IMG/VR virus record: IMGVR_UViG_3300048577_000559
DNA length: 64,000 nt
Direction: 5' to 3' (one strand)
From: a virus
The translations under genes were made by a program, and so were the position numbers. Positions 7,780 through 59,426 of the stretch are shown one piece after another (positions within the stretch are counted from its first letter, which is position 1; each line of letters starts with the position of its first letter). The notes beneath the pieces were generated by a model. That model worked only from the letters and a program-made list of their open reading frames with translations, was not told the DNA's origin and made no database searches.

Positions 7780-8634
7780 ATGTCCGTCTCTCTGTACCTG
7801 GCGCGTCCGTGGTTGTCTTGTTTCGAGGGTGAGGATGACGCTACGAAGGCCGCCGCTGAGAAGGCCGCAGCCGAGGCTGCCGCCGCTGCCGCTGCCGCAG
7901 GCAAGTCGTTCACCCAGGAAGACGTGAATCGCATCGTGGCGGCCGACCGGCGCAAGCTGGAAGAGGCGCTGAGGAAGAGCGAGAAACAGTACCAAGACCT
8001 GCTGGCTGGCCAGAGTCTCACCGAGCAAGAGCGGAAGGCCCTGCAAGCGAACCTGGAAATGGTGCAAGGCCAACTGCGGTCGAAGGAAGAACAGCTTCTT
8101 CTGGAAAAGAAGCAGGTCGAAGAGGTCTACGCCGGTAAGCTGCAAGAGTTAGAAAAGAAGGCAGCGTTCTTTGAGACGCTGTTCCGTGATTCCACCATCG
8201 AGCGGGCGCTCCAAGACGCCGCTGTCAAGCACGAGGCGTGGAGTCCCTCGCAAGTCGTCACCCTGCTTCGCGGGCAGACGAAGATGTTGGAAGAGACGGA
8301 CCCCAAGACCGGCAAATTGATGGGCAAGTTTCGGCCGATGGTCGAGATGCAGGCCGTCAATACGGCGACCGGCGAAGTGGAGACCAAGGCGTACACGCCC
8401 GACGACGCCGTAAAGAAGATGAAGGACACGCCCGACACCTGGGGCAATCTCTTCCGCAGCGGCGTGGTTTCGGGCATCGGCGCGGGAACGGCTACCGGCG
8501 GCCTCACGCCGGGTCAAGGCAGCAAACTGGATGCGGCGGCAATTCGCAAGCTGACGCAAGAGCAGTTCCGCGAGATTCGGGCCAACCACCCTGAATGGCT
8601 CGGACTCGACCCTTTGCCTAAGAAGAGCCGCTAG
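7780..8634 (+). CDS. Scaffolding protein.
   Basis: Coiled-coil-rich, Ala/Glu/Lys/Leu-rich protein immediately upstream of the major capsid gene. RBS AAGGAAG. Confidence 0.55.
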   Translation: MSVSLYLARPWLSCFEGEDDATKAAAEKAAAEAAAAAAAAGKSFTQEDVNRIVAADRRKLEEALRKSEKQYQDLLAGQSLTEQERKALQANLEMVQGQLRSKEEQLLLEKKQVEEVYAGKLQELEKKAAFFETLFRDSTIERALQDAAVKHEAWSPSQVVTLLRGQTKMLEETDPKTGKLMGKFRPMVEMQAVNTATGEVETKAYTPDDAVKKMKDTPDTWGNLFRSGVVSGIGAGTATGGLTPGQGSKLDAAAIRKLTQEQFREIRANHPEWLGLDPLPKKSR

Positions 8635-35922: not shown

Positions 35923-37617
35923 ATGCAGCCCTTCTTCGAGCAGAACAACCTGAGCCTGTATTGCGGCAACTGCCTCGACGTGCTCGCCACGCTCCCCGAG
36001 GCGTCCGTGGATTACGTCGTGACAGACCCACCCTACCTTCTCAACTTTATGGAGAAGGATTGGGACGCTGCTGGCGGCGACATCCCAACAAGCGAGTTGG
36101 TATTTCGGTCCTGGTTCGCCGGTTTGGTTGCCGGGGAGGCGTGCTTCCGAATCCACCGTGAAAAGGACGGAACCTACTACGCTTGTGAGTTCAACATCAA
36201 GATGCGTGCCGATGAAGGCCCGCTGCTGCGGGCGTTAGCTCGGCGCATCGAAGCAGGGAATGTGCAGGACATTCCGGCTGAGTCGCGCGCTGTGAATAGT
36301 GGACCAGCCGTGAAGTGGGTTGTCCACTCCCGCGAGGATTGCTGGAAGATCGCCCGCTTGTTGGACGGCACGCCACTCTATGCGAAGAAGCAACGTGAAT
36401 ACGATCTGTGGCGCAGAGCCCTGAACGTCTGGACGACAACGCCGCGTGGCAACCGTTGGTGTGGTCCGCGCGACAATTCGGCAATGGAATCCTTGTGGGA
36501 GGAGATGAAGACGCTGCGGCCGTTCGATCAGGACTTGGCTGATGGCGACTTCGATCCGCTGCGGCAACCGGATTACCTCTTCCACAATCGTTGGGCGAAA
36601 GCCTGCCTGCGCGTTGTGAAACCCGGCGGCCTCCTGCTGGCGTTTGGCGGTACACGCACCTATCACCGGCTGACTTGCGCAATCGAGGACGCCGGGTGGG
36701 AGATTCGGGACGCGCTGATGTGGCTCTATGGGCAGGGGATGCCCAAGTGCGGCGACATCGGCAAACTGATCGACAAGTCGAAAGGCGCGAAGCGCGAAAT
36801 CATCGGCGACAAGTTGGATCGTCCCGGCTACCACTTGCACGAAGGCAAGGGAAACGGGTGCTACGGCGGCGGCAACGGACTTCATGCCCCTGGCACGGAT
36901 GCTCGGCTTCGCGCCGCGCAGATAACGGCACCGGCGACTCCCGAGGGCGCGAAGTGGACCGGCTGGGCGATGGCGTTGAAGCCGGCCTGGGAGCCAATCG
37001 TCCTGGCGATGAAGCCGCTGGACGGCACGATTGCCCACAACGCCCTGACCTGGGGCGTGGCCGGCATGAACATTCAGGCTTCCCGCATCGGCAACGAGAG
37101 CACGATACGCACTCGCGGGGACAGCTTGACGGACGCCGGCTGGGCCAGCACGAACCGCTCGCCTCTGGGCGGGTCGGAATGCGGGCGATGGCCGGCGAAC
37201 TTACTGCTGGACGAGGAAGCGGCTGTTCAACTGGACACTCAAGCGGGCACGCTTACGAGCGGCACCAACTGCGTCCGCACGAAATCCGGCGACGGCTACC
37301 ACGGCCGTCTCGGTAAGGCGGGCGATGTGCAGATCAGCTACGGCGACTCCGGCGGAGCGAGCCGGTTTTTCTACTGTGCTAAAGCGACACGCACGGAGCG
37401 CGGGCCGGGCAACGACCATCCGACCGTTAAGCCCCTGGCCCTCATGGAGTACCTGTTGACGCTGCTCTCGACCCCGGATGGCGGCGTGATTCTGGACCCC
37501 TTCGCCGGCAGCGGCACCACGCTCTTGGCCGCCAAAAGCCTTGGCCGCCGTTGCATCGGCGTCGAGTTGACCGCACACAACTGCGAGATCGCCCGAGGGA
37601 GATTGCATGTCGCTTGA
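35923..37617 (+). CDS. DNA methyltransferase (N6A/N4C, beta class) with an embedded LAGLIDADG-like domain.
   Basis: Motif IV DPPY near the N-terminus, RVVKPGG downstream, and motif I DPFAGSGTT at the C-terminus. An insertion of about 180 aa contains WFAGLVAGEACF...GPLLRALARRIEAGNV...WKIARLLDGTPLYAKKQREYDLWRRAL, matching the LAGLIDADG homing-endonuclease pattern. Confidence 0.65.
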   Translation: MQPFFEQNNLSLYCGNCLDVLATLPEASVDYVVTDPPYLLNFMEKDWDAAGGDIPTSELVFRSWFAGLVAGEACFRIHREKDGTYYACEFNIKMRADEGPLLRALARRIEAGNVQDIPAESRAVNSGPAVKWVVHSREDCWKIARLLDGTPLYAKKQREYDLWRRALNVWTTTPRGNRWCGPRDNSAMESLWEEMKTLRPFDQDLADGDFDPLRQPDYLFHNRWAKACLRVVKPGGLLLAFGGTRTYHRLTCAIEDAGWEIRDALMWLYGQGMPKCGDIGKLIDKSKGAKREIIGDKLDRPGYHLHEGKGNGCYGGGNGLHAPGTDARLRAAQITAPATPEGAKWTGWAMALKPAWEPIVLAMKPLDGTIAHNALTWGVAGMNIQASRIGNESTIRTRGDSLTDAGWASTNRSPLGGSECGRWPANLLLDEEAAVQLDTQAGTLTSGTNCVRTKSGDGYHGRLGKAGDVQISYGDSGGASRFFYCAKATRTERGPGNDHPTVKPLALMEYLLTLLSTPDGGVILDPFAGSGTTLLAAKSLGRRCIGVELTAHNCEIARGRLHVA

Positions 37618-40041: not shown

Positions 40042-41004
40042 ATGAAGTACGTGCTGTTGGCCCTGACTCTGATCGCCTTGGCGGTCGCTCCGGCGGTCGC
40101 CGGTGTGCCCGATGATTTGCAGCGTGTGAGCGTCACCATCAAGGCCGGCCGCGCCCAAGGCTCCGGCACCCTCGTAACTCGGCAGGTGGGCGACGATACC
40201 GTGACCTTCATCTGGACGGCCGCGCATGTCGTCGATGGCCTTCGCACCACGCGCACCGTGGTCACACCGCAAGGAACCCCGAAAATTCTCGTCGAGTACA
40301 AGGACGCCGAGATCGTCCAGGAGCGGCAGCAAGACGGCCGCCGCGTGGGCGAAGTCAAATACGACTGCAAGATCATCAAGGTCAGCGATGCCGACTACGG
40401 TGAAGACTTGGCGGTGCTCATGGTCCGCTGCAAAGGGGCGTACCCCCTGAACGTCTGCGCCAAGTTCCGCAAAGACCCGAACTACATCCCGCCCATCGGC
40501 GTCGATCTGAGTCATTGCGGCAGTCTCCTGGGCCAGTTCGGGGCCAACAGCTACACAACCGGCGTGCTCTCCCAAGTAGGACGCACATTGCCCATGAGGG
40601 GTGCCAACGTCAAGGTCTTCGATCAGGTCACGACCGTCTCGTTTCCCGGCTCGTCCGGCGGCGGCATGTACTTGAAGGACGACGGCCTGTACATCGGCAT
40701 GTTGACCCAGGGCGTCATGCAGTTGCAGGGCTTCAACTTCATTGTCCCGGTGCGGCGCATCCATGCCTGGGCGAAGCAGTCGAAGATCGAGTGGGCTATC
40801 GACCCCACGGTGCCAATGCCCAGCTTGAAGGAGATCGACGCGATCCCCGTGGAAGACGCCGGCCAGTCGCCGGGCGGCTATCCCGACCGCAACCCGGTCG
40901 CCGGCCCCGACGAGCCGCCCGCTTTCAAGCCGCCATTCAACTTCGACAACGCTATCAACTGGGTCGAGCGACTGTTCAACCGCGCGGGCCGTCGGTCCTC
41001 TTGA
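40042..41004 (+). CDS. Secreted trypsin-like (S1) serine protease.
   Basis: Signal peptide MKYVLLALTLIALAVAPAVAG. His motif TAAHVV, Ser motif GSSGGGM, and a plausible Asp. Confidence 0.65.
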   Translation: MKYVLLALTLIALAVAPAVAGVPDDLQRVSVTIKAGRAQGSGTLVTRQVGDDTVTFIWTAAHVVDGLRTTRTVVTPQGTPKILVEYKDAEIVQERQQDGRRVGEVKYDCKIIKVSDADYGEDLAVLMVRCKGAYPLNVCAKFRKDPNYIPPIGVDLSHCGSLLGQFGANSYTTGVLSQVGRTLPMRGANVKVFDQVTTVSFPGSSGGGMYLKDDGLYIGMLTQGVMQLQGFNFIVPVRRIHAWAKQSKIEWAIDPTVPMPSLKEIDAIPVEDAGQSPGGYPDRNPVAGPDEPPAFKPPFNFDNAINWVERLFNRAGRRSS

Positions 41005-41131: not shown

Positions 41132-42448
41132 ATGAAGCTGACAAAGAAGAAGGTTGAGAAGATCAAGACCGCCATCGTCGAAGGCGTCACGCAACCCGAG
41201 ATCGCCAAACGGTTCAAGATCAGCCGTTCCGTGGTTTCAGACATTGCAACGGGCCGGGTCCACAAAGACGTGGACTGGCCGGGCGGCCAGCCGCCGACGC
41301 CCAGGCGGGCCGGCGGCCAGCATAAGAACCTCCCAGACTACGACCCGACCGACAAGCGGGTCTTGGAGTTGGAGGCCGAGATCGTCCACCTGACCGAGGA
41401 GCGGAACCGTGAACGGCAAAAGGTCAAGGCCGGGGCGAAGATCGCGGGCCTGTTCAAGGCCGTCGTTGCGGAAATGGAACAACGCATCAAGCCGGTTGAG
41501 CCGTTGCCGCCGGCCTTTGAGTACCGCCGCAAGGCGCAGATCGTCGAGCACTGTGTCATGCACCTTTCGGACGGCCACCACGATCAGGTCGTGGTTCCCG
41601 ATCAGGTCGGCGGGCTGGAAGACTACGACTTTCCTGTCTCGTGTTGTCGTGCCGAGCGGTACGTCAACACGGTCGTGGAATGGACCCAGGACACCCTGGC
41701 CCCGACGTTCTATTTCCCCGTTCTGTGGGTGCTGGCCTACGGCGACTTCACCAGCGGCGAAATCCACAAGGCGTGCGAGCGGTCGTACTACCGCAACCAG
41801 TTCAAGAATTGCCTCGCCATCGGCCAGTTGCACGCCTTGATGTACCGCGACCTGGCCGCGCACTTCGAGGAGGTCCACGTCTTGTATTTGGCCGGCAACC
41901 ACGGCCGACGGACTCCCAAGAAGGATTATCTCGGCGCGCACGACAACTGGGATTACCTGGTCGGTGAGGTCGCTCGTCTGCATTGCCGTGGCGTGGAGAA
42001 CGTCCACTTTACGATTCCCGATGCGTGGAGCGCCAACGTCAACATCAACGGCGTCGGTTTCAACATCGCGCACGGCGACGACGTTCGCTCCAACCTGGGC
42101 ATCCCGTGGTACGGCATGGTCCGGCGGCAAAAGGGCCTGATCGCCCTGGGCGCGGCGGCCGGTGCCCAGCGTTGCCGCTATTTCTGTGTCGGCCATCATC
42201 ATGCCGCCAGCGTCTTGTCCGACGTGGATGGCGAACTGCTGGTCAACGGGTCATGGGTGGGCACCGACGCCTTCGCCTACAACTCCTTGTCCGGCTACCG
42301 CGAGCCGTCTCAGTGGCTTCATGGCGTCAATCCGAAGCACGGCATCACTTGGCGGATGAACTGCAAGCTGCGCCACGAGAACGAGAAGAACGGCCCCACG
42401 CGCTATTTGATCGACGGTGGCCGCGATGTGGGGCCACTGAAGATCTGA
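41132..42448 (+). CDS. HTH-domain protein fused to a calcineurin-like metallophosphatase.
   Basis: N-terminal HTH (TQPEIAKRFKISRSVVSDIATGRV). Phosphoesterase motifs VMHLSDGHHD, GNHG, GHHH. Confidence 0.55.
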   Translation: MKLTKKKVEKIKTAIVEGVTQPEIAKRFKISRSVVSDIATGRVHKDVDWPGGQPPTPRRAGGQHKNLPDYDPTDKRVLELEAEIVHLTEERNRERQKVKAGAKIAGLFKAVVAEMEQRIKPVEPLPPAFEYRRKAQIVEHCVMHLSDGHHDQVVVPDQVGGLEDYDFPVSCCRAERYVNTVVEWTQDTLAPTFYFPVLWVLAYGDFTSGEIHKACERSYYRNQFKNCLAIGQLHALMYRDLAAHFEEVHVLYLAGNHGRRTPKKDYLGAHDNWDYLVGEVARLHCRGVENVHFTIPDAWSANVNINGVGFNIAHGDDVRSNLGIPWYGMVRRQKGLIALGAAAGAQRCRYFCVGHHHAASVLSDVDGELLVNGSWVGTDAFAYNSLSGYREPSQWLHGVNPKHGITWRMNCKLRHENEKNGPTRYLIDGGRDVGPLKI

Positions 42449-42460
42449 CCCGGAGTAGAT

Positions 42461-42636
42461 CATGCCGATCCATCGCACAACGAAGAACGGGACGCCTGCG
42501 TTTCAATACGGCACAACGGGTGCCAAGTACACCTACACGCCCGGCAATGCCGCGAGCAGTGAGGCCGCCAAGAAGAAAGCCATCAAGCAGTCCCTCGCCA
42601 TTGCACGCCGCTCTGGGAAGCCTGCTCACCTGTAGA
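42461..42636 (+). CDS. Small hypothetical protein (58 aa).
   Basis: Short ORF MPIHRTTKNGTPAFQYGTTGAKYTYTPGN, not in the supplied track. Good coding look, lysine-rich C-terminus. Confidence 0.3.
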
Positions 42637-42650
42637 CCTGCGAGACGCTT

Positions 42651-42851
42651 ATGACCACATGCACCATCGAGCATCACCGGGACGGCGAGTGCGTCGAGAA
42701 GTGGAACGTCACGGAGGAAATGATCCAACGTGACGGTGACATGGCACGAGTCGTCTTCCCAGTAGGGCAGATCGTCATGGCCAGCTTTGACGAACTGCAC
42801 TTTTGCCTGAGTGACGGGCTGGACGTTTTGAGCGAGGTCCAGCAACGGTGA
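42651..42851 (+). CDS. Small hypothetical protein.
   Basis: 66-aa ORF in a run of small genes. Confidence 0.3.
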   Translation: MTTCTIEHHRDGECVEKWNVTEEMIQRDGDMARVVFPVGQIVMASFDELHFCLSDGLDVLSEVQQR

Positions 42852-43066
42852 GATACCGAGCACTGTTCATCGGCGGTCCTGTGGACGGGCAAGAGCGAGT
42901 CCTGGCGCATCGCAATCGCTACATCGGGATGCGCGACCAGCCGCAATGCGTCTACCGTCTGCTGTTTGCCTTCGGCGAGCCGCACACGCTGGTCTACTCG
43001 CTCTATGGCGTCGAGGAGACCTTGAACCGATTGTGGCACCGCTATGCGGGAGAAGACCATGCGTAA
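42848..43066 (+). CDS. Small hypothetical protein.
   Basis: 72-aa ORF with start overlapping the upstream stop. Confidence 0.3.
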   Translation: MRYRALFIGGPVDGQERVLAHRNRYIGMRDQPQCVYRLLFAFGEPHTLVYSLYGVEETLNRLWHRYAGEDHA

Positions 43067-43397
43067 GCTGGACCAGTTTTACGACCTGCTGCGGCTTGTC
43101 GCGCACAAAGACCCGTGGAGCGAGCAGGTGGAGTTCATGCTGCTTCACCACGTCAGCGGCAAGCCGCGAGCAGTCTGCGGCCCGCTGCAATTCGTCGAGA
43201 TTCCTGAAGGTGCGCAGGTCAACCCGACTTTCTGCCTCCACGGCCCCGAGGCCCAGGAACTAATGGACATGCTCTGGAACTGCGGGCTGCGCCCCACCCA
43301 GGGCGAGAGCAGCGCCGGGCAACTGGATGCCGTGGAACGTCACTTGGCCGATATGCGGGCCATCGCCTTCAACAAGCTGGAGATCCAACCGTGCTGA
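43059..43397 (+). CDS. Hypothetical protein.
   Basis: 112-aa ORF MRKLDQFYDLLRLVAHKDPW. Confidence 0.35.
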   Translation: MRKLDQFYDLLRLVAHKDPWSEQVEFMLLHHVSGKPRAVCGPLQFVEIPEGAQVNPTFCLHGPEAQELMDMLWNCGLRPTQGESSAGQLDAVERHLADMRAIAFNKLEIQPC

Positions 43398-43636
43398 GCA
43401 AATTGTGCTGGTGTTTCTGGCAACTTTTCCCTTGCACCTACCGGACCTTCTACGGCGACGAGTACGGCCGAATCCACTTTGCCGTGTGGAAGATGTGGTT
43501 CGGCCGGTGCTACCGGGTCAACGACGTGATCGTGGACACCTTCACCGCTGCATTGGACAGCACCCTGCGTCTCTTGGACGCGCTGTGTGCGGCCAACCGA
43601 ACCCGCGAGTGCTGCGGAGAGTGCCGCAGCAAATAG
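43391..43636 (+). CDS. Small Cys-rich protein.
   Basis: 81 aa with a GTG start. CWCFWQLFPC and C-terminal CCGECRSK. Confidence 0.3.
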   Translation: MLSKLCWCFWQLFPCTYRTFYGDEYGRIHFAVWKMWFGRCYRVNDVIVDTFTAALDSTLRLLDALCAANRTRECCGECRSK

Positions 43637-43660
43637 CCCCTTCATCAACAGGAAACACCC

Positions 43661-43888
43661 ATGCCCGCCGACAACCTGCGCTACCCTGAGTTGCCCGAGG
43701 ATCGGGATGACGACTTCGAGGGTGAAGACGATGAGTGGGACGACGACTTCGCGGACGAAGACGACCTCGACGAAGACGATCCGTACTTTGACGACGACGA
43801 TGATCTCGATGACGACGAGTGGGAGGACGAAGACGACGACTGGGACGACGAAGACGAGGAGGACGAGGAGGACGAGTACGGAGCATAG
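43661..43888 (+). CDS. Hyperacidic small protein (DNA-mimic-like, candidate anti-restriction).
   Basis: 75 aa, almost entirely D/E with interspersed W/F/Y (DDEWDDDFADEDDLDEDDPYFDDDDDLDDDEWEDEDDDWDDEDEEDEEDEY). Confidence 0.5.
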   Translation: MPADNLRYPELPEDRDDDFEGEDDEWDDDFADEDDLDEDDPYFDDDDDLDDDEWEDEDDDWDDEDEEDEEDEYGA

Positions 43889-43916
43889 TCGAGCCACCAT
43901 GCGTGGCAACGATACC

Positions 43917-43944
43917 CTCACCGTGGCCTCGCGGCCACGGTGAG
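43917..43944 (+). other. 12-bp perfect hairpin CTCACCGTGGCC-tcgc-GGCCACGGTGAG.
   Basis: Read directly from the sequence. No T-run follows. It lies between the acidic-protein gene and the tRNA. Confidence 0.4.
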
Positions 43945-43950
43945 AGCCGT

Positions 43951-44023
43951 TGTGGCGTAGTTCAGTTGGCAGAGCGGGTGCCTGTTGAGCACCGGGTCGC
44001 TGGTTCGAGTCCAGCCGCTACAG
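43951..44023 (+). tRNA. tRNA-Asn (anticodon GTT).
   Basis: Manual cloverleaf: acceptor TGTGGCG/CGCTACA, D-stem GTTC/GAGC, anticodon stem GGTGC/GCACC with loop CTGTTGA, T-arm GCTGG-TTCGAGT-CCAGC, discriminator G. Confidence 0.75.
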
Positions 44024-44044
44024 CCTCAATCTTGGAGACAGCCA

Positions 44045-44845
44045 ATGCCTATCTTCTGTGTGAGTGACCTGCATCTGTGCGACCGAGGCTACCGCGACAA
44101 CTTCGCCGTGGAAGGCCGCGAGGCCCGCTTCCACAGGTTCCTGGACTACGTGGAGGCCGAAGGCGGCCTACTGTATGTCCTGGGCGACCTGTTCGATTGG
44201 TGGCAAGTGAACCTGAGTCGGTCGATTCGTGCCTATCAAGACCTGCTGGCACGCTTGGCTCACCTCGGATCGCTGGGGGCCTTGTGGGTGGTCGGCAACC
44301 ACGATAACGCTTTGACCGATTTCGTCGGCAGCAACATCAAATTGCAGGGCCTCACTTTGCCCGCAATGTCCAGGGCCTTCGAGGCGACCATCGGCGGCCG
44401 GCAGTTCGCCTTTCTCCACGGCCACGAGTCCGACCCGTATTGCCGCGACGCCAACCCTGGCACCGGCGAGATTACGGCAATCATTTCCGGGCTGCTGGAA
44501 GACCGCAACCGTGGGCCGTTTTCGACGAATCATCATGCCGTGGAAGACCAGTTCGTCGGCACGTTGGAAGGGGCCTTGATCCTCTGGCGGAAGTTGACCC
44601 TCCAGCACGGCCGCATGGATGAAATGCTCGACGGCGTGGAAGCGTATCGCAAGGAGGCCGGGGCCGACGTGGTGGTCTACGGTCACACGCACGAGCCGGG
44701 CTGCATCGGCGACTACCACTTCAACACCGGCACCTGGGCAAGGACGAACGATACCTTCGTGCGGATCAACGACGACGGCGATGCAGCCGTCTGGGAGTGG
44801 CGGCACGATAACCGGCCTGTGTTGTTCTCCCGTGTATTGCGATGA
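44045..44845 (+). CDS. Calcineurin-like metallophosphoesterase.
   Basis: Motifs VSDLHL, GDLFD, GNHD, GHTH. Confidence 0.7.
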   Translation: MPIFCVSDLHLCDRGYRDNFAVEGREARFHRFLDYVEAEGGLLYVLGDLFDWWQVNLSRSIRAYQDLLARLAHLGSLGALWVVGNHDNALTDFVGSNIKLQGLTLPAMSRAFEATIGGRQFAFLHGHESDPYCRDANPGTGEITAIISGLLEDRNRGPFSTNHHAVEDQFVGTLEGALILWRKLTLQHGRMDEMLDGVEAYRKEAGADVVVYGHTHEPGCIGDYHFNTGTWARTNDTFVRINDDGDAAVWEWRHDNRPVLFSRVLR

Positions 44846-53684: not shown

Positions 53685-54188
53685 ATGAAACTGCGACTTC
53701 GCCACTGGGTAAGGCTGACGCTGAGGGTGGCTCTCTACTCGCTCATCGTGCAACTCAGCATCCCGATCATTGGCGGCATGTACTACAGCATGACCGGCGA
53801 CCACCGCGGCGAGCAGAGGTATCTCGACCGCTCCGTCGCCCACCTGAAACGGATGCGGGCCTTCTGCGACGACCCCGATCTGCAAAGCGTCTTGGATTAC
53901 ACGATTCGGCGCTACCACAAGGTCGGCGCGTGGGACGTGATGTTCATGCCGCTGACCGGGCCAGTGATTAACCCCGGTGGCGAGGCGGGCAAGTCCATTG
54001 GCTGCAACTGCCCCTGGTGTCCGGGCGTGACGCTCGACACCTGCCTCTTGATCGACTTCGCGCCCGAGGAAACCGCCATCGTGCTGGCGCACGAGGCCCT
54101 GCACGACTACTGGCCCTTCTTCGGCCACGACCATATCAACGCCCGCGAAAAGAGACTCCAAGAGCTAAGTGATGCCGTCCGCCGGTAA
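53685..54188 (+). CDS. Putative zinc metallopeptidase-like protein (HExxH).
   Basis: HEALHD motif and N-terminal hydrophobic segment. Confidence 0.35.
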   Translation: MKLRLRHWVRLTLRVALYSLIVQLSIPIIGGMYYSMTGDHRGEQRYLDRSVAHLKRMRAFCDDPDLQSVLDYTIRRYHKVGAWDVMFMPLTGPVINPGGEAGKSIGCNCPWCPGVTLDTCLLIDFAPEETAIVLAHEALHDYWPFFGHDHINAREKRLQELSDAVRR

Positions 54189-54696
54189 GTACCGCACGAT
54201 CATCGCCGATCCGCCGTGGACCCCGACGCTCAACGCGGGGCACCCGTCCTTCAAGGCGGGGCCGCAGCGGCAGTACCGGACCATGAGCGTGCGGGACATT
54301 TGCAGCCTGAAGGTGCCGGCCGCCAAGCAAGCCCACTTGTGGCTGTGGGTGGTGAACCAGCACGTCGATTGGGGCTACGAGGTGGCGCGGGCCTGGGGCT
54401 TCGAGCCGTGGAACGTGCTCACTTGGGCCAAGCCTGGCCTGGGCGTGGGCCGCTTCCAGTGCAATAGCGAGCACGTCCTGGTCTGCCGCAAGGGGCCACG
54501 CCACGGCAACCCCTTCGGCCCGACCGGCGGAACGTGGTTCGCATGGCCGCGAGGCCGTCACAGCGAGAAGCCCGAGGAGTTCTACCGGCTCGTGGAGTCG
54601 GCGTCTCCCGGCCCTTACCTGGAAATGTTCGCCCGCACCCGCCGATCTGGCTGGGACGCCTTCGGCAACGAAGTGGAAGGTTCGATCTGCTTATGA
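54169..54696 (+). CDS. MT-A70-family N6-adenine DNA methyltransferase.
   Basis: DPPW catalytic motif (IIADPPWTP) and MT-A70-like length. Confidence 0.7.
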   Translation: MMPSAGKYRTIIADPPWTPTLNAGHPSFKAGPQRQYRTMSVRDICSLKVPAAKQAHLWLWVVNQHVDWGYEVARAWGFEPWNVLTWAKPGLGVGRFQCNSEHVLVCRKGPRHGNPFGPTGGTWFAWPRGRHSEKPEEFYRLVESASPGPYLEMFARTRRSGWDAFGNEVEGSICL

Positions 54697-55340
54697 GCTA
54701 CACCCGCGAACAGATTGCCGCTGCCCTGGACTTGGCCGTCTTGAAGCCGACCGCCACGGCCGCCGACGTGCGCGCCGCTTGTGCCCTGGCCGTCGCCCGG
54801 CAGATCAAGTCGGTCTGCGTTGCCCCAGTCTGGGTGCCGATGGCGAGCGACTTGTACGGCAACGTGTGCGCCATCATTGCCTTTCCCCACGGAAACACGC
54901 TGCCCGAGGCCAAGTACGCCGAGGCCCTAGCGGCAATGGACTGTGGGGCGAAGGAACTTGACGTGGCGGTCAACTACGGCCGGTTTCTCGACAGCGGCCA
55001 CCACGACGCCTTCTGGGACATCGCCGCAATCGTCAAGGCGGCCCACCCACGCGGCGTGCTCGTCAAGGCGATTCTGGAAACCTGCTATTACACGCCGGAC
55101 CAAATCCGCGAAGCCTGCCGCCTGTGTGTCAAGAGTGGTGTGGACTTCGTGAAGACATCGACCGGCTTCGGACCCGGCGGGGCCACGCCCGAAGCCGTCA
55201 AGACCATGTTGGAAGCCGTCAATGGCGAGGCCCAAGTGAAGGCCAGCGGCGGCATCAAGACCTACTCCGACGCCGCCCGCTACCTGGACCTGGGCTGCAC
55301 TCGCCTCGGCTCGTCCCGCTACTTGGAGCTGCTGCCGTGA
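54693..55340 (+). CDS. deoC: Deoxyribose-phosphate aldolase.
   Basis: DLAVLKPTAT, SVCVAP, Schiff-base Lys context DFVKTSTGF and VKASGGI, typical of DeoC. Confidence 0.75.
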   Translation: MSYTREQIAAALDLAVLKPTATAADVRAACALAVARQIKSVCVAPVWVPMASDLYGNVCAIIAFPHGNTLPEAKYAEALAAMDCGAKELDVAVNYGRFLDSGHHDAFWDIAAIVKAAHPRGVLVKAILETCYYTPDQIREACRLCVKSGVDFVKTSTGFGPGGATPEAVKTMLEAVNGEAQVKASGGIKTYSDAARYLDLGCTRLGSSRYLELLP

Positions 55341-55351
55341 AGAAGTCCAAG

Positions 55352-55951
55352 ATGAACCGACTGGCCTGGAACCGGGGCTACCTCTGCGGCGCAATGGACC
55401 GCGTGACCGATGGCGGCGTCGGCTGGCGTCAAGACCTGATCGAGAGCCTGAAGGACTTGAACATTCTCTGGCTCGACCCGACGCGCAAGCCAATCGACAT
55501 AGGCGTGGAAGACCTGGAGAACCGCGCCCTGCGCCACAAGGCAAAGCGGGCCGGCGACTTCGAGTTCGTCCGCAACCAGATGAAGCAGATTCGTCCCGTC
55601 GATCTGCGGATGGTGGACATCTGCGACTTCCTCGTGGTGAACCTCGATCTGCAAGTCCACGCCACGGGGACATACGAAGAACTGTTCTGGGCGAACCGGA
55701 TGAAGAAGCCGGTCCTGGTGCGCGTGGAGCAGGGAATCGAACACACCCCGGACTGGCTCTTCGGCACGTTGCCCTTCGAGATGATCTTCTCGACGTGGGA
55801 CGAAGTGAAGACCTATCTGCGGCACGTCGCCCACGATCCGGTGATCGACCGGCTCAACCGCTGGTACTTCTTCAACTGGATGGGCGAGAACTGCATCGAG
55901 TCAGCCAATCATGGCGTCGGCCGCAAGATCGTCAGGAGGGTGAAGAAGTGA
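55352..55951 (+). CDS. Nucleoside 2-deoxyribosyltransferase / dNMP N-glycosidase-like protein (NDT/DNPH1 family).
   Basis: N-terminal GYLCGAMD resembles the NDT-family YLAGP motif. About 200 aa. Confidence 0.45.
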   Translation: MNRLAWNRGYLCGAMDRVTDGGVGWRQDLIESLKDLNILWLDPTRKPIDIGVEDLENRALRHKAKRAGDFEFVRNQMKQIRPVDLRMVDICDFLVVNLDLQVHATGTYEELFWANRMKKPVLVRVEQGIEHTPDWLFGTLPFEMIFSTWDEVKTYLRHVAHDPVIDRLNRWYFFNWMGENCIESANHGVGRKIVRRVKK

Positions 55952-58435: not shown

Positions 58436-58686
58436 AGATTCTCGTCTACCACGGCAGACATGGCGACGACTATTTCCTCGTCGATACGCCCGAACGACTG
58501 CAAGCAGCCATGCGTCAGTTGTTCAAGCAACTGGACGACTGGCACTGCTACGACCGCGATGAAGAAGGCGTGATCGAGGCGCGAGCCGGCGACGCGCGTG
58601 CAATCCGTTGGCTGCTCGACCGCCATAACGGCTACGAGTACGAAGGCTGGAACATCATCGAGGCCATTGATCCATGCACACCCTGA
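58432..58686 (+). CDS. Hypothetical protein.
   Basis: 84-aa ORF starting MKILVYHGRHGDD. Confidence 0.3.
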   Translation: MKILVYHGRHGDDYFLVDTPERLQAAMRQLFKQLDDWHCYDRDEEGVIEARAGDARAIRWLLDRHNGYEYEGWNIIEAIDPCTP

Positions 58687-59426
58687 TTAACGCCGACTGT
58701 CTCGATTACCTCAACGGCAACCGCCAGACTTGGACCACGATCTTGGCGGACCCGCCGGACAACATCGGCCTGAGCTACCAGAGCTACAAGGACAGACTGC
58801 CCGACCACCAATACGTGGACCTGCTGGAGACCTGGTTGCACCTGTTTGTTCACAGGGCCAAGACCGTTTGGTTCAGCTTCAACGCGAAGTGGACCTTCGA
58901 GGTTGGCCGCATCGTCGCCGAGATCGTCCGGCGGACCAGCGGCTTGGAAGCCAAGCCCTGCGTCCAGACTTTCACCTTCGGGCAACATTGCCACCACGAC
59001 CTGGGCAACAACCACCGGCCGCTCTGGCGGCTGCGGTGGTGTGACGCCCCGCTGCGTCCCGATGCGATCCGCGTGCCGAGTTGGCGGCAGGAGAACGGCG
59101 ACAAGCGGGCTGACCCGCGCGGGCGGGTGCCCGGCGACGTGTTCGACTTCACTCGCGTCGTGGGCAACAGCAAGCAGCGCCGTCCGTGGCACCCGACGCA
59201 ACTCAACGAGGGGCTGGTCGAGCGGTGCGTGAAGTTCACCACGCCAGAAGGCGAGTCAGTCCTAGACCCCTTCGGCGGCACGGGCACGACGCTCCGCGTT
59301 TGCCGGCCGCTGGGCTACCCCTGCACCCTAATCGAGATCGACCGGGGCTACTGCGACAAGATCGTCGAAGAGCACGGCATGAAGCGGTCGGAGTACATCC
59401 ATCGCGCCTTGTGGGAGGTCGAATGA
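58674..59426 (+). CDS. DNA methyltransferase (beta class, variant motif IV DPPD).
   Basis: ILADPPDN near the N-terminus, and motif I DPFGGTGTT near the C-terminus. Confidence 0.6.
   Translation: MHTLINADCLDYLNGNRQTWTTILADPPDNIGLSYQSYKDRLPDHQYVDLLETWLHLFVHRAKTVWFSFNAKWTFEVGRIVAEIVRRTSGLEAKPCVQTFTFGQHCHHDLGNNHRPLWRLRWCDAPLRPDAIRVPSWRQENGDKRADPRGRVPGDVFDFTRVVGNSKQRRPWHPTQLNEGLVERCVKFTTPEGESVLDPFGGTGTTLRVCRPLGYPCTLIEIDRGYCDKIVEEHGMKRSEYIHRALWEVE

Follow-up and report, generated by a model that had tools for sequence, protein, structure and literature searches.

A hyperacidic accessory gene of Planctomycetota phages encodes a predicted disordered polyanion that may act as a flexible nucleic-acid decoy

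We analyzed an open reading frame (ORF) for a 75-residue hyperacidic protein at positions 43661-43888 of a viral DNA stretch of 64,000 nucleotides, IMG/VR record IMGVR_UViG_3300048577_000559 (the window, by which we mean the whole stretch). An original prediction, made from the letters of the window, had proposed the protein as a candidate DNA mimic or anti-restriction protein. We found that the ORF is a genuine, conserved phage gene and that it is accessory and dispensable. Its product is predicted to be an intrinsically disordered polyanion in which a handful of short linear motifs are conserved, and the role that we tentatively favor for it is that of a flexible mimic competing with nucleic acids for protein surfaces.

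The hyperacidic ORF is a conserved phage gene

The ORF, its length, and its translation agreed exactly with the original prediction. The extreme acidity also held, with 33 Asp and 16 Glu among the 75 residues (49/75, ~65%), 2 Arg, and no Lys or His; the computed net charge is -47, where about -45 had been estimated. The bulky residues are 3 Trp, 3 Phe, 3 Tyr, and 4 Leu. We scanned every six-frame ORF of at least 50 aa within the window for its richest 50-residue segment in Asp plus Glu (D/E). The fraction was 0.80 for this ORF versus 0.34 for the runner-up, and the mean D/E content of the phage's large genes was 0.128 (12.8%), indicating that the ORF is a lone extreme outlier and that there is no compositional drift across the window. 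Only ~12 residues stand ahead of the acidic tail, and residues 13-75 are 73% D/E with Arg15 as the single basic residue.

The 3′ half of the ORF carries degenerate 3-, 9-, 18-, and 21-nt repeats (66-85% matches) with no clean microsatellite, and the acidic tail is partly composed of degenerate 18/21-nt tandem units. The periodic alternation of aromatic and acidic residues that had been described was approximately confirmed, in that hydrophobic residues are separated by gaps of 4-7 residues with a coefficient of variation of 0.48, compared with 0.82 in shuffled sequences (p=0.02). This even spacing is due in part to the 18- and 21-nt tandem units.

Homology searches, given below, were blind to the acidic protein, and we therefore used synteny to find relatives. 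The search was anchored on both flanking enzymes, an exonuclease and a metallophosphoesterase, and covered 114 IMG/VR loci and 14 genomic loci; a plus-strand ORF was accepted as an ortholog if it occupied the corresponding slot and D/E accounted for at least 60% of a 30-residue stretch. We found a hyperacidic ORF at this slot in ~23 distinct contigs, including prophages in metagenome-assembled genomes (MAGs) of Planctomycetota, and the exonuclease beside it had diverged down to ~70% identity. Conservation in related phages, which the original prediction had named as a check, was thereby established.

Nearly all orthologs have GGAG or GGAGA 6-9 nt upstream of the ATG. An N-terminal M-P-x-(D/N)(D/N)-L motif, scored as [DNE][DNE]L within the first 12 residues, was present in 17 of 22 family members. 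A central D-P-Y-F-D motif is common to the window and its nearer relatives (loci L035, L045, L058, L040, and L078) and takes the forms DPYL and DPDF in L082 and L052. When we scanned IMG/VR with a degenerate DNA pattern for DD-P-Y-F-DDD, matches in an acidic context occurred only in this phage family, and the only others were two chance matches in non-acidic proteins. The last Trp lies 4-16 residues before the C-terminus in 19 of 22 members, a result reached by 0 of 2000 shuffles. The choice of Asp and Glu codons in the ORF agrees with that of the phage's large genes. Insertions and deletions (indels) separating close orthologs are 18, 9, 15, and 3 nt long, all multiples of 3.

The placement of acidic runs also points to translation. 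Across the family, the longest pure D/E run averages 5.0 residues within the first ~32 residues and 12.5 later in the protein, and shuffling predicts 6.6 for the early segment (p=0.0007). Runs of at least 14 residues, which extend up to 39, all begin at residue 29 or later. Nascent chains rich in Asp, Glu, and Pro at the N-terminus abort translation by destabilizing the ribosome, an effect that is offset once ~30 residues of chain fill the exit tunnel or where bulky residues lie close to the peptidyl-transferase center (bioRxiv 10.1101/2021.02.02.429294). The positions of the runs in this family fit that rule, and a scarcity of early long runs is sensible only if the ORF is translated. Avoidance of acidic runs at the N-terminus would then be a natural example of a ribosome-destabilization constraint acting on protein sequence.

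These data bear on the low-complexity, non-coding origin for which the original prediction had left room, namely that a purine-rich GAC/GAA triplet-repeat tract is open by chance in the D/E frame. Degenerate repeats are indeed present, the multiple-of-3 indels could also be explained by triplet slippage, and the antisense frames, broken by stops in 5-7 of 23 orthologs, are open too in most copies; moreover, an exact-sequence look-up of the 75-aa protein in a very large public gene-call collection returned no record. Against this stand the Shine-Dalgarno sequence and ATG conserved in nearly all orthologs, the conservation of a non-repetitive N-terminal motif and of aromatic codons, the position-dependent length of the acidic runs, the phage-like codon usage, and the tight packing of the ORF between genes on the coding strand. 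We regard a non-genic origin as most improbable. We also considered a readthrough fusion with the upstream ORF, which is in the same frame in the window, and rejected it because a 5-nt upstream indel in L035 breaks the relation.

Predicted disorder and variation within the family

AlphaFold2, run on the single sequence, gave a mean predicted local distance difference test score of 56.7, a predicted template modeling score of 0.15, and no secondary structure. With about two-thirds of the residues acidic and only 13 of 75 aromatic or Leu, a folded core is implausible. The original prediction had suggested that the protein might mimic a phosphate backbone; because no fold is predicted, a rigid surface copy of B-DNA is excluded, and any mimicry would be of a flexible polyelectrolyte kind.

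Tails in the family consist of 52% Asp, 21% Glu, and 15% Phe, Leu, Trp, or Tyr, with less than 1% Lys plus Arg. Family members are 41 to ~130 residues long, with poly-Asp expansions in some lineages. The acidic protein of the window differs from that of its closest relative by several substitutions and a 6-residue indel despite neighboring genes that are 92-100% identical, indicating that it changes faster than the genes that flank it.

We detected no Pfam-A match for the 75-aa protein at E≤0.01 and none at E≤10 for six family members, no match in PHROG, NCBIfam, or PADLOC, and no PDB chain at E≤10. Likewise, there was no match by tblastn against cultured phages, by phmmer against 5.8 billion clustered proteins, or by exhaustive phmmer against 1.84 billion representative proteins, and a pattern search matched 46 stretches, of which tblastn confirmed 0. 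Composition-bias correction and low-complexity filters erase the signal of such a protein, so that missing matches are weak evidence of uniqueness. As judged from these searches, the disordered hyperacidic proteins of Planctomycetota phages appear to be uncatalogued and to belong to no known family.

Several copies showed individual features. In a prophage copy (L129 11232-11453), the acidic ORF passes midway from the D/E frame to a Thr/Arg-rich +2 frame, a change that points to a frameshift pseudogene or else to an error of long-read assembly at a homopolymer or repeat. In two Aureliella-associated loci (L127 6778-7071 and L128 1-210), a hyperacidic ORF punctuated by Trp and Phe lies directly upstream, not downstream, of an exonuclease with ~51% identity, and there is no tRNA near it. 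In L087 (10488-10913), the end of the hyperacidic ORF, just ahead of the tRNA-Asn gene, is overlapped by a second ORF, of 141 aa, whose C-terminal region is acidic. The acidic protein of L059 contains an unbroken D/E run of 39 residues, mostly Asp.

A possible nucleic-acid decoy

We tentatively read the product as a flexible polyelectrolyte-type competitive nucleic-acid mimic, a motif-bearing disordered polyanion encoded by an accessory gene; we consider this plausible, if still short of probable. On this model, a target protein would have its basic DNA- or RNA-binding surface covered by the acidic chain, and the conserved aromatics would insert at base-stacking sites or adjoining hydrophobic pockets and give specificity, so that the target would be blocked or sequestered. 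A host defense nuclease, a nucleoid protein, RNA polymerase, or a single-stranded DNA (ssDNA)-binding protein would be candidate targets. We infer both the decoy mechanism and the host-directed role: that the gene is accessory, fast-evolving, and cassette-borne favors counter-defense or takeover directed at the host. Hypervariable small-gene cassettes are where counter-defense and host-takeover genes accumulate, which lends partial support to the earlier idea. An extreme negative charge in the absence of basic residues is the common hallmark of known phage nucleic-acid mimics. An anti-restriction role is possible. Acidic-aromatic activation domains behave as ssDNA mimics (PMC2755895), and EVADES contains 11 DNA-mimic anti-defense proteins, described as broad-spectrum (bioRxiv 10.1101/2025.06.06.658234). 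The protein is best classed among the known acidic phage mimic and decoy proteins, as a fully disordered variant.

Several considerations weigh against a decoy. In the databases searched, the protein shows no homology to proteins whose function is known, and composition alone cannot separate nucleic-acid mimicry from cation or polyamine binding and other polyanion roles. The even spacing of the aromatic and other bulky residues, which had been taken as a sign of backbone mimicry, may at least in part reflect a translatability constraint under the nascent-chain rule, not binding. The conservation, motif, and run statistics treat family members as independent and are uncorrected for relatedness, and single-sequence AlphaFold2 is a mode that often gives poor models. 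Finally, with three DNA methyltransferases already encoded by the phage, the need for an extra anti-restriction factor is not obvious.

Among rivals to the flexible decoy, we consider it unlikely that the protein is an acidic-aromatic ssDNA mimic of the type of DSS1 or of the tail of single-stranded DNA-binding protein (SSB), serving the phage's own replication or recombination and not counter-defense. In that case it would dock on ssDNA-binding proteins of the host or of the phage, those with an oligonucleotide/oligosaccharide-binding fold among them, and either displace them from ssDNA or recruit them. The location between the SbcD/Mre11-like exonuclease and the metallophosphoesterase, near genes for ParB, DNA polymerase, helicase, primase, and ligase, is in keeping with this, and we recognized no SSB gene among the annotated genes of the window. 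DSS1 and prothymosin-alpha are disordered acidic proteins, of which prothymosin-alpha forms polyelectrolyte complexes, and DSS1 resembles the window protein in size (75 aa) and in its pattern of D/E and Trp/Phe. DSS1/Sem1 and the p53 transactivation domain are likewise disordered acidic proteins or segments of ~70 residues, whose Trp and Phe, set among D/E, bind oligonucleotide/oligosaccharide-binding-fold or other ssDNA-binding surfaces. The interleaved pattern of the window protein resembles that of acidic-aromatic ssDNA mimics (PMC2755895). DSS1, prothymosin-alpha, and these activation domains are eukaryotic and far less extreme in charge, and the likeness is one of analogy only. A core replication accessory, moreover, would not be missing from 28 of 47 close relatives, and the C-terminus is not conserved and lacks the terminal aromatic typical of SSB and T7 gp2.5 tails. 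BLASTP against human DSS1 gave a non-significant, 10-residue low-complexity match (E=0.45), and the Pfam DSS1/SEM1 profile did not match at E≤10. An SSB-tail mimic with a terminal aromatic was rejected as a separate candidate, since the C-termini vary (…EYGA, …EDE, …EYEE, …DPIA). An anti-restriction protein of the Ocr/ArdA type, imitating double-stranded DNA and blocking type I restriction-modification or BREX, strikes us as quite unlikely. T7 Ocr and the ArdA of plasmids and transposons are, as here, small and strongly negative proteins of mobile elements, and their functional logic, competition with DNA for a DNA-binding site, is the one that we propose for the window protein, which is extremely acidic and lies in a phage accessory cassette; the broad-spectrum activity recorded in EVADES for DNA-mimic anti-defense proteins also speaks for it. 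Nevertheless, Ocr and ArdA are rigid folded dimers with ~25-30% acidic residues whose carboxylates are patterned like B-DNA phosphates, and ArdA has ~165 aa, whereas the window protein is ~65% acidic, predicted to be unstructured, and, at 75 aa, far shorter than ArdA. The likeness to these proteins drawn in the original prediction was not sustained, in that no Pfam family (Ocr and ArdA included), PHROG, NCBIfam, or PDB chain matched even at E≤10. Neither an Ocr-type folded helical dimer with surface carboxylates that imitate bent B-form DNA (from AlphaFold2 on the single sequence and the low count of aromatic and Leu residues) nor the profile and elongated three-domain fold of ArdA (from Pfam, PDB, and AlphaFold2) was supported. 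In addition, the gene is neither at the genome end nor in the first-injected position, and the three methyltransferases again argue against the need for such a factor.

A role that does not involve protein binding would be as a sink for cations or polyamines (Mg2+, Ca2+, or spermidine) or as an mgtL-like Mg2+-responsive translation signal, in which a ribosome-destabilizing acidic ORF would adjust to the Mg2+ level how strongly the downstream tRNA and phosphoesterase are expressed. Asp-dominated polyanions bind and chelate divalent cations, both flanking enzymes are metal-dependent phosphoesterases, and a stable hairpin lies between the ORF and the tRNA. N-terminal sequences rich in D/E and Pro abort translation in an Mg2+-sensitive manner, with mgtL as an example (bioRxiv 10.1101/2021.02.02.429294). 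On the other hand, aromatic and Pro motifs conserved at fixed relative positions are unneeded for chelation, the family avoids and does not exploit the most destabilizing acidic arrangement, the ORF, at 75-190 codons, is much longer than known leader peptides, and the downstream phosphoesterase is kept in the same operon of relatives that lack the acidic ORF. We thus hold a sink or sensor to be very unlikely.

The closest studied analogs of the proposed decoy appear to be DSS1 and the acidic region of SPO1 Gp44. Residues 56-122 of Gp44 are 57% D/E, contain no basic residues, and are disordered; this region binds the beta/beta′ subunits of RNA polymerase and has been proposed to be an ssDNA mimic (PMC8208478; PMC13401047). 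Gp44 and the window protein have in common a long, disordered, D/E-rich segment encoded by a phage (57% versus ~65-73% D/E), and the window protein differs in having two Arg. Gp44 has 237 aa, including a folded N-terminal domain that binds DNA and is required for its activity as well as a distinct C-terminal region, whereas we detected no folded N-terminal DNA-binding domain in the window protein. No sequence similarity was detected between the two, and the hosts are Bacillus and Planctomycetota, respectively. The only DNA match in a cultured phage (74.8%) was to gp64 of Gordonia phage LittleFella (L115 2393-3145), a protein of 250 aa, without annotated function, that ends in a hyperacidic C-terminal tail of ~70 residues. 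It has in common with the window protein a hyperacidic tract of more than 50 residues in a phage replication/recombination module, and gp64 comes after a PD-(D/E)XK nuclease and an AAA_24 ATPase. We rejected gp64 as a homolog, as the match reflects low-complexity GAC/GAA similarity.

Acidic mimics are among the broadest phage counter-defense tools, almost all studied examples are folded, and their extreme sequence diversity makes them difficult to find. The present family indicates that a disordered protein that is two-thirds acidic can persist across a large group of Planctomycetota phages and keep short motifs that are still recognizable. Should the protein act as a polyelectrolyte decoy, phage DNA/RNA mimicry would widen from rigid surface copies to fuzzy binding like that of histone chaperones and prothymosin, and the protein would offer a minimal motif-defined scaffold with which to probe which bacterial DNA-binding immune proteins yield to charge plus aromatics.

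A linked tRNA-Asn gene

The original prediction had placed a tRNA next to the ORF. ARAGORN and Rfam identified it as tRNA-Asn(GTT), which begins ~60 bp downstream of the acidic gene in the window. Among the relatives, the acidic gene and a tRNA in the interval occurred together in 14 contigs, the gene alone in 5, the tRNA alone in 2, and neither in 26 (Fisher p=3e-6); the association persisted with near-duplicate contigs collapsed (p=1.6e-5) and for tRNA-Asn alone (p=1.4e-5). In nearly every case the linked tRNA is Asn(GTT) and lies 20-70 bp 3′ of the acidic gene; more distant relatives and one prophage add a tRNA for Thr(TGT), Met, Ser, Ile, Leu, or Pro. The sequence of the tRNA has diverged strongly between lineages, indicating that the pairing with the gene is old.

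Locus L036 (~7940-7990, aligned to window 44010-44045) has neither the acidic gene nor the tRNA; of the latter, only the final ~12 nt of the 3′ acceptor arm (GCCGCTACAG) remain, immediately 5′ of the phosphoesterase start. This remnant indicates that the cassette was lost there by deletion. Because a single deletion can take both features, and because each occurs alone, physical linkage suffices for the association, and a functional link between gene and tRNA is only a possibility. A link through codon supply was rejected, as Asn is encoded only once in the ORF and the GAC and GAT codons are not decoded by a GTT anticodon.

In the window, L035, and L045, the tRNA-Asn has G37 (anticodon loop CUGUUGA) in place of the near-universal A37, the t6A site, whereas the tRNA-Asn of other relatives has A37 with UAAU or UAAG. 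The G37 form may help the tRNA to evade a nuclease or a modification, or it may mark a tRNA in decay, although the window tRNA scores well overall against Rfam (58.9 bits). In L059 (at 8904), the tRNA-Asn(GTT) has 84 nt and, unusually for a tRNA-Asn, a long extra arm. The hairpin that separates the ORF stop from the tRNA in the window lies in a 67-nt region with a folding energy of -36.7 kcal/mol (z=-4.75). The hairpin is conserved only in part in L035 and is possibly an element for transcript processing or stabilization.

These features recall PARIS, whose triggers are small, negatively charged phage proteins of unrelated sequence, namely Ocr and the T5 proteins Ptr1 and Ptr2 (PMC11464382). 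The PARIS nuclease cuts tRNAs of the classes Lys(UUU), Thr(UGU), and Asn(GUU), which T5 carries, and the T5 tRNA-Lys, tRNA-Thr, and tRNA-Asn act as PARIS suppressors (PMC11464382; PMC12409363). A UAAU element near the AriB cleavage site is conserved among the target tRNAs (PMC12409363), and phage tRNAs can escape anticodon nucleases through changes in the anticodon loop (PMC10264068). In a compendium of 268 anti-defense proteins, DNA mimics are enriched among defense triggers. Like the PARIS triggers, a class set by property and not by sequence, the window protein is small and strongly negative. T5 and the present phage group, moreover, both carry tRNAs of these classes: here tRNA-Asn(GTT) is inherited together with the acidic gene, and distant relatives have tRNA-Thr(TGT) as well. 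The window tRNA-Asn, with its G37, is without the UAAU element. For the window protein, a role as a PARIS trigger would be a matter of analogy, and the linkage may be purely physical.

By analogy, the acidic gene and the downstream tRNA-Asn(GTT) might form a two-part counter-defense module of a decoy plus an insurance tRNA. The disordered polyanion would jam DNA-targeting immune proteins, PARIS-like sensors would detect such polyanions and cut tRNA-Lys, tRNA-Thr, and tRNA-Asn, and a linked nuclease-resistant tRNA-Asn, joined in distant relatives by tRNA-Thr(TGT), would be kept as insurance. We rate this as doubtful, with a low probability, since tRNA-Asn genes are common in phages and positional linkage explains the data. 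If true, it would represent a hard-wired "anti-defense plus anti-anti-anti-defense" cassette in an unstudied host phylum.

Genomic context

The coordinates of the acidic gene and of the features around it are given in Table 1.

Table 1. Positions of the acidic gene, its sequence elements, and adjacent features in the window.
Feature	Position	Strand	Basis
Hyperacidic protein coding sequence, 75 aa, stop codon included	43661..43888	+	ORF list, translation, ~23 positional orthologs
Shine-Dalgarno-like AGGAAA, 5 nt 5′ of ATG	43650..43655	+	direct sequence reading
Semi-conserved N-terminal segment MPADNLRYPELPEDRDDDF with (D/N)(D/N)L motif and P-E-D-R-DDDF	43661..43717	+	alignment
Polyacidic tail, residues 13-72, ~73% D/E, W/F/Y/L every 4-7 residues	43697..43876	+	composition, repeat, and spacing analyses
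Central D-P-Y-F-D motif, residues 40-44	43778..43792	+	alignment and IMG/VR DNA-pattern scan
Near-C-terminal E-D-D-D-W-D-D motif, Trp61 anchor	43829..43849	+	last-Trp position versus shuffles
Perfect 12-bp GC-rich hairpin, 4-nt loop, no U tract, between ORF stop and tRNA	43917..43944	+	
tRNA-Asn(GTT), anticodon loop CUGUUGA	43951..44025	+	ARAGORN; Rfam RF00005, 58.9 bits (gathering score 29)
Hypervariable accessory cassette: five small ORFs, acidic gene, and tRNA	42462..44025	+	presence/absence across 114 loci
Exonuclease, N-terminal helix-turn-helix, phrog_284, SbcD/Mre11-like	41132-42448		profile match
Calcineurin-like metallophosphoesterase, Pfam Metallophos, followed by ParB-like gene	44045-44845		profile match

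Six small plus-strand ORFs (42462-43888) lie in the replication/recombination module, and the acidic gene comes last among them. The run of small genes that had been described is real and lies on one strand, and its "early-type" label is an inference from the location in that module. The other five ORFs encode 57, 66, 72, 117, and 81 aa, and none matched Pfam, PHROGs, NCBIfam, or PADLOC; the 81-aa product has a Cys-rich C-x8-CC-x2-C segment at its end. A scan for promoters and terminators gave no signal above chance, so that the acidic gene appears to lie within a long operon. The interval between the exonuclease and the phosphoesterase varies from 438 to 5618 bp across relatives as small genes come and go, and the acidic gene is present in 19 of the 47 contigs that have the complete interval.

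The window is a tailed-phage genome of 60-65% G+C with terminase, portal, major head protein, and a 1270-aa tape measure at 3-17 kb. Its genes for DNA metabolism include those for a primase, two ParB-like proteins, a helicase, a DNA polymerase, and a ligase, and there are also a deoxyribonucleotidase-like gene and a weakly nucleoside 2-deoxyribosyltransferase-like gene (55124-55951). Three genes encode DNA methyltransferases (35923-37617, 54169-54696, and 58674-59426), one of the MT-A70 type. Together, the methyltransferases and the deoxyribosyltransferase-like gene suggest a heavy investment in DNA modification or anti-restriction. Relatives of the exonuclease (L116-L129) occur in MAGs assigned to Thermoguttaceae, Planctomycetaceae, Aureliella, other Planctomycetota, and one Anaerolinea bin, some of them inside contigs of 0.4-4.2 Mb. 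These occurrences indicate that the host phylum is Planctomycetota and that the phage group is at least partly temperate; the phage is likely a siphovirus-type phage of Planctomycetota. The relatives came from peat and soil samples (SPRUCE and Microflora Danica MAGs). At 40042-41004, we noted a 320-aa protein with a signal-peptide-like N-terminal segment, which weakly matches a phage protease PHROG and the PADLOC LmuA model (E=2e-7, residues 24-122).

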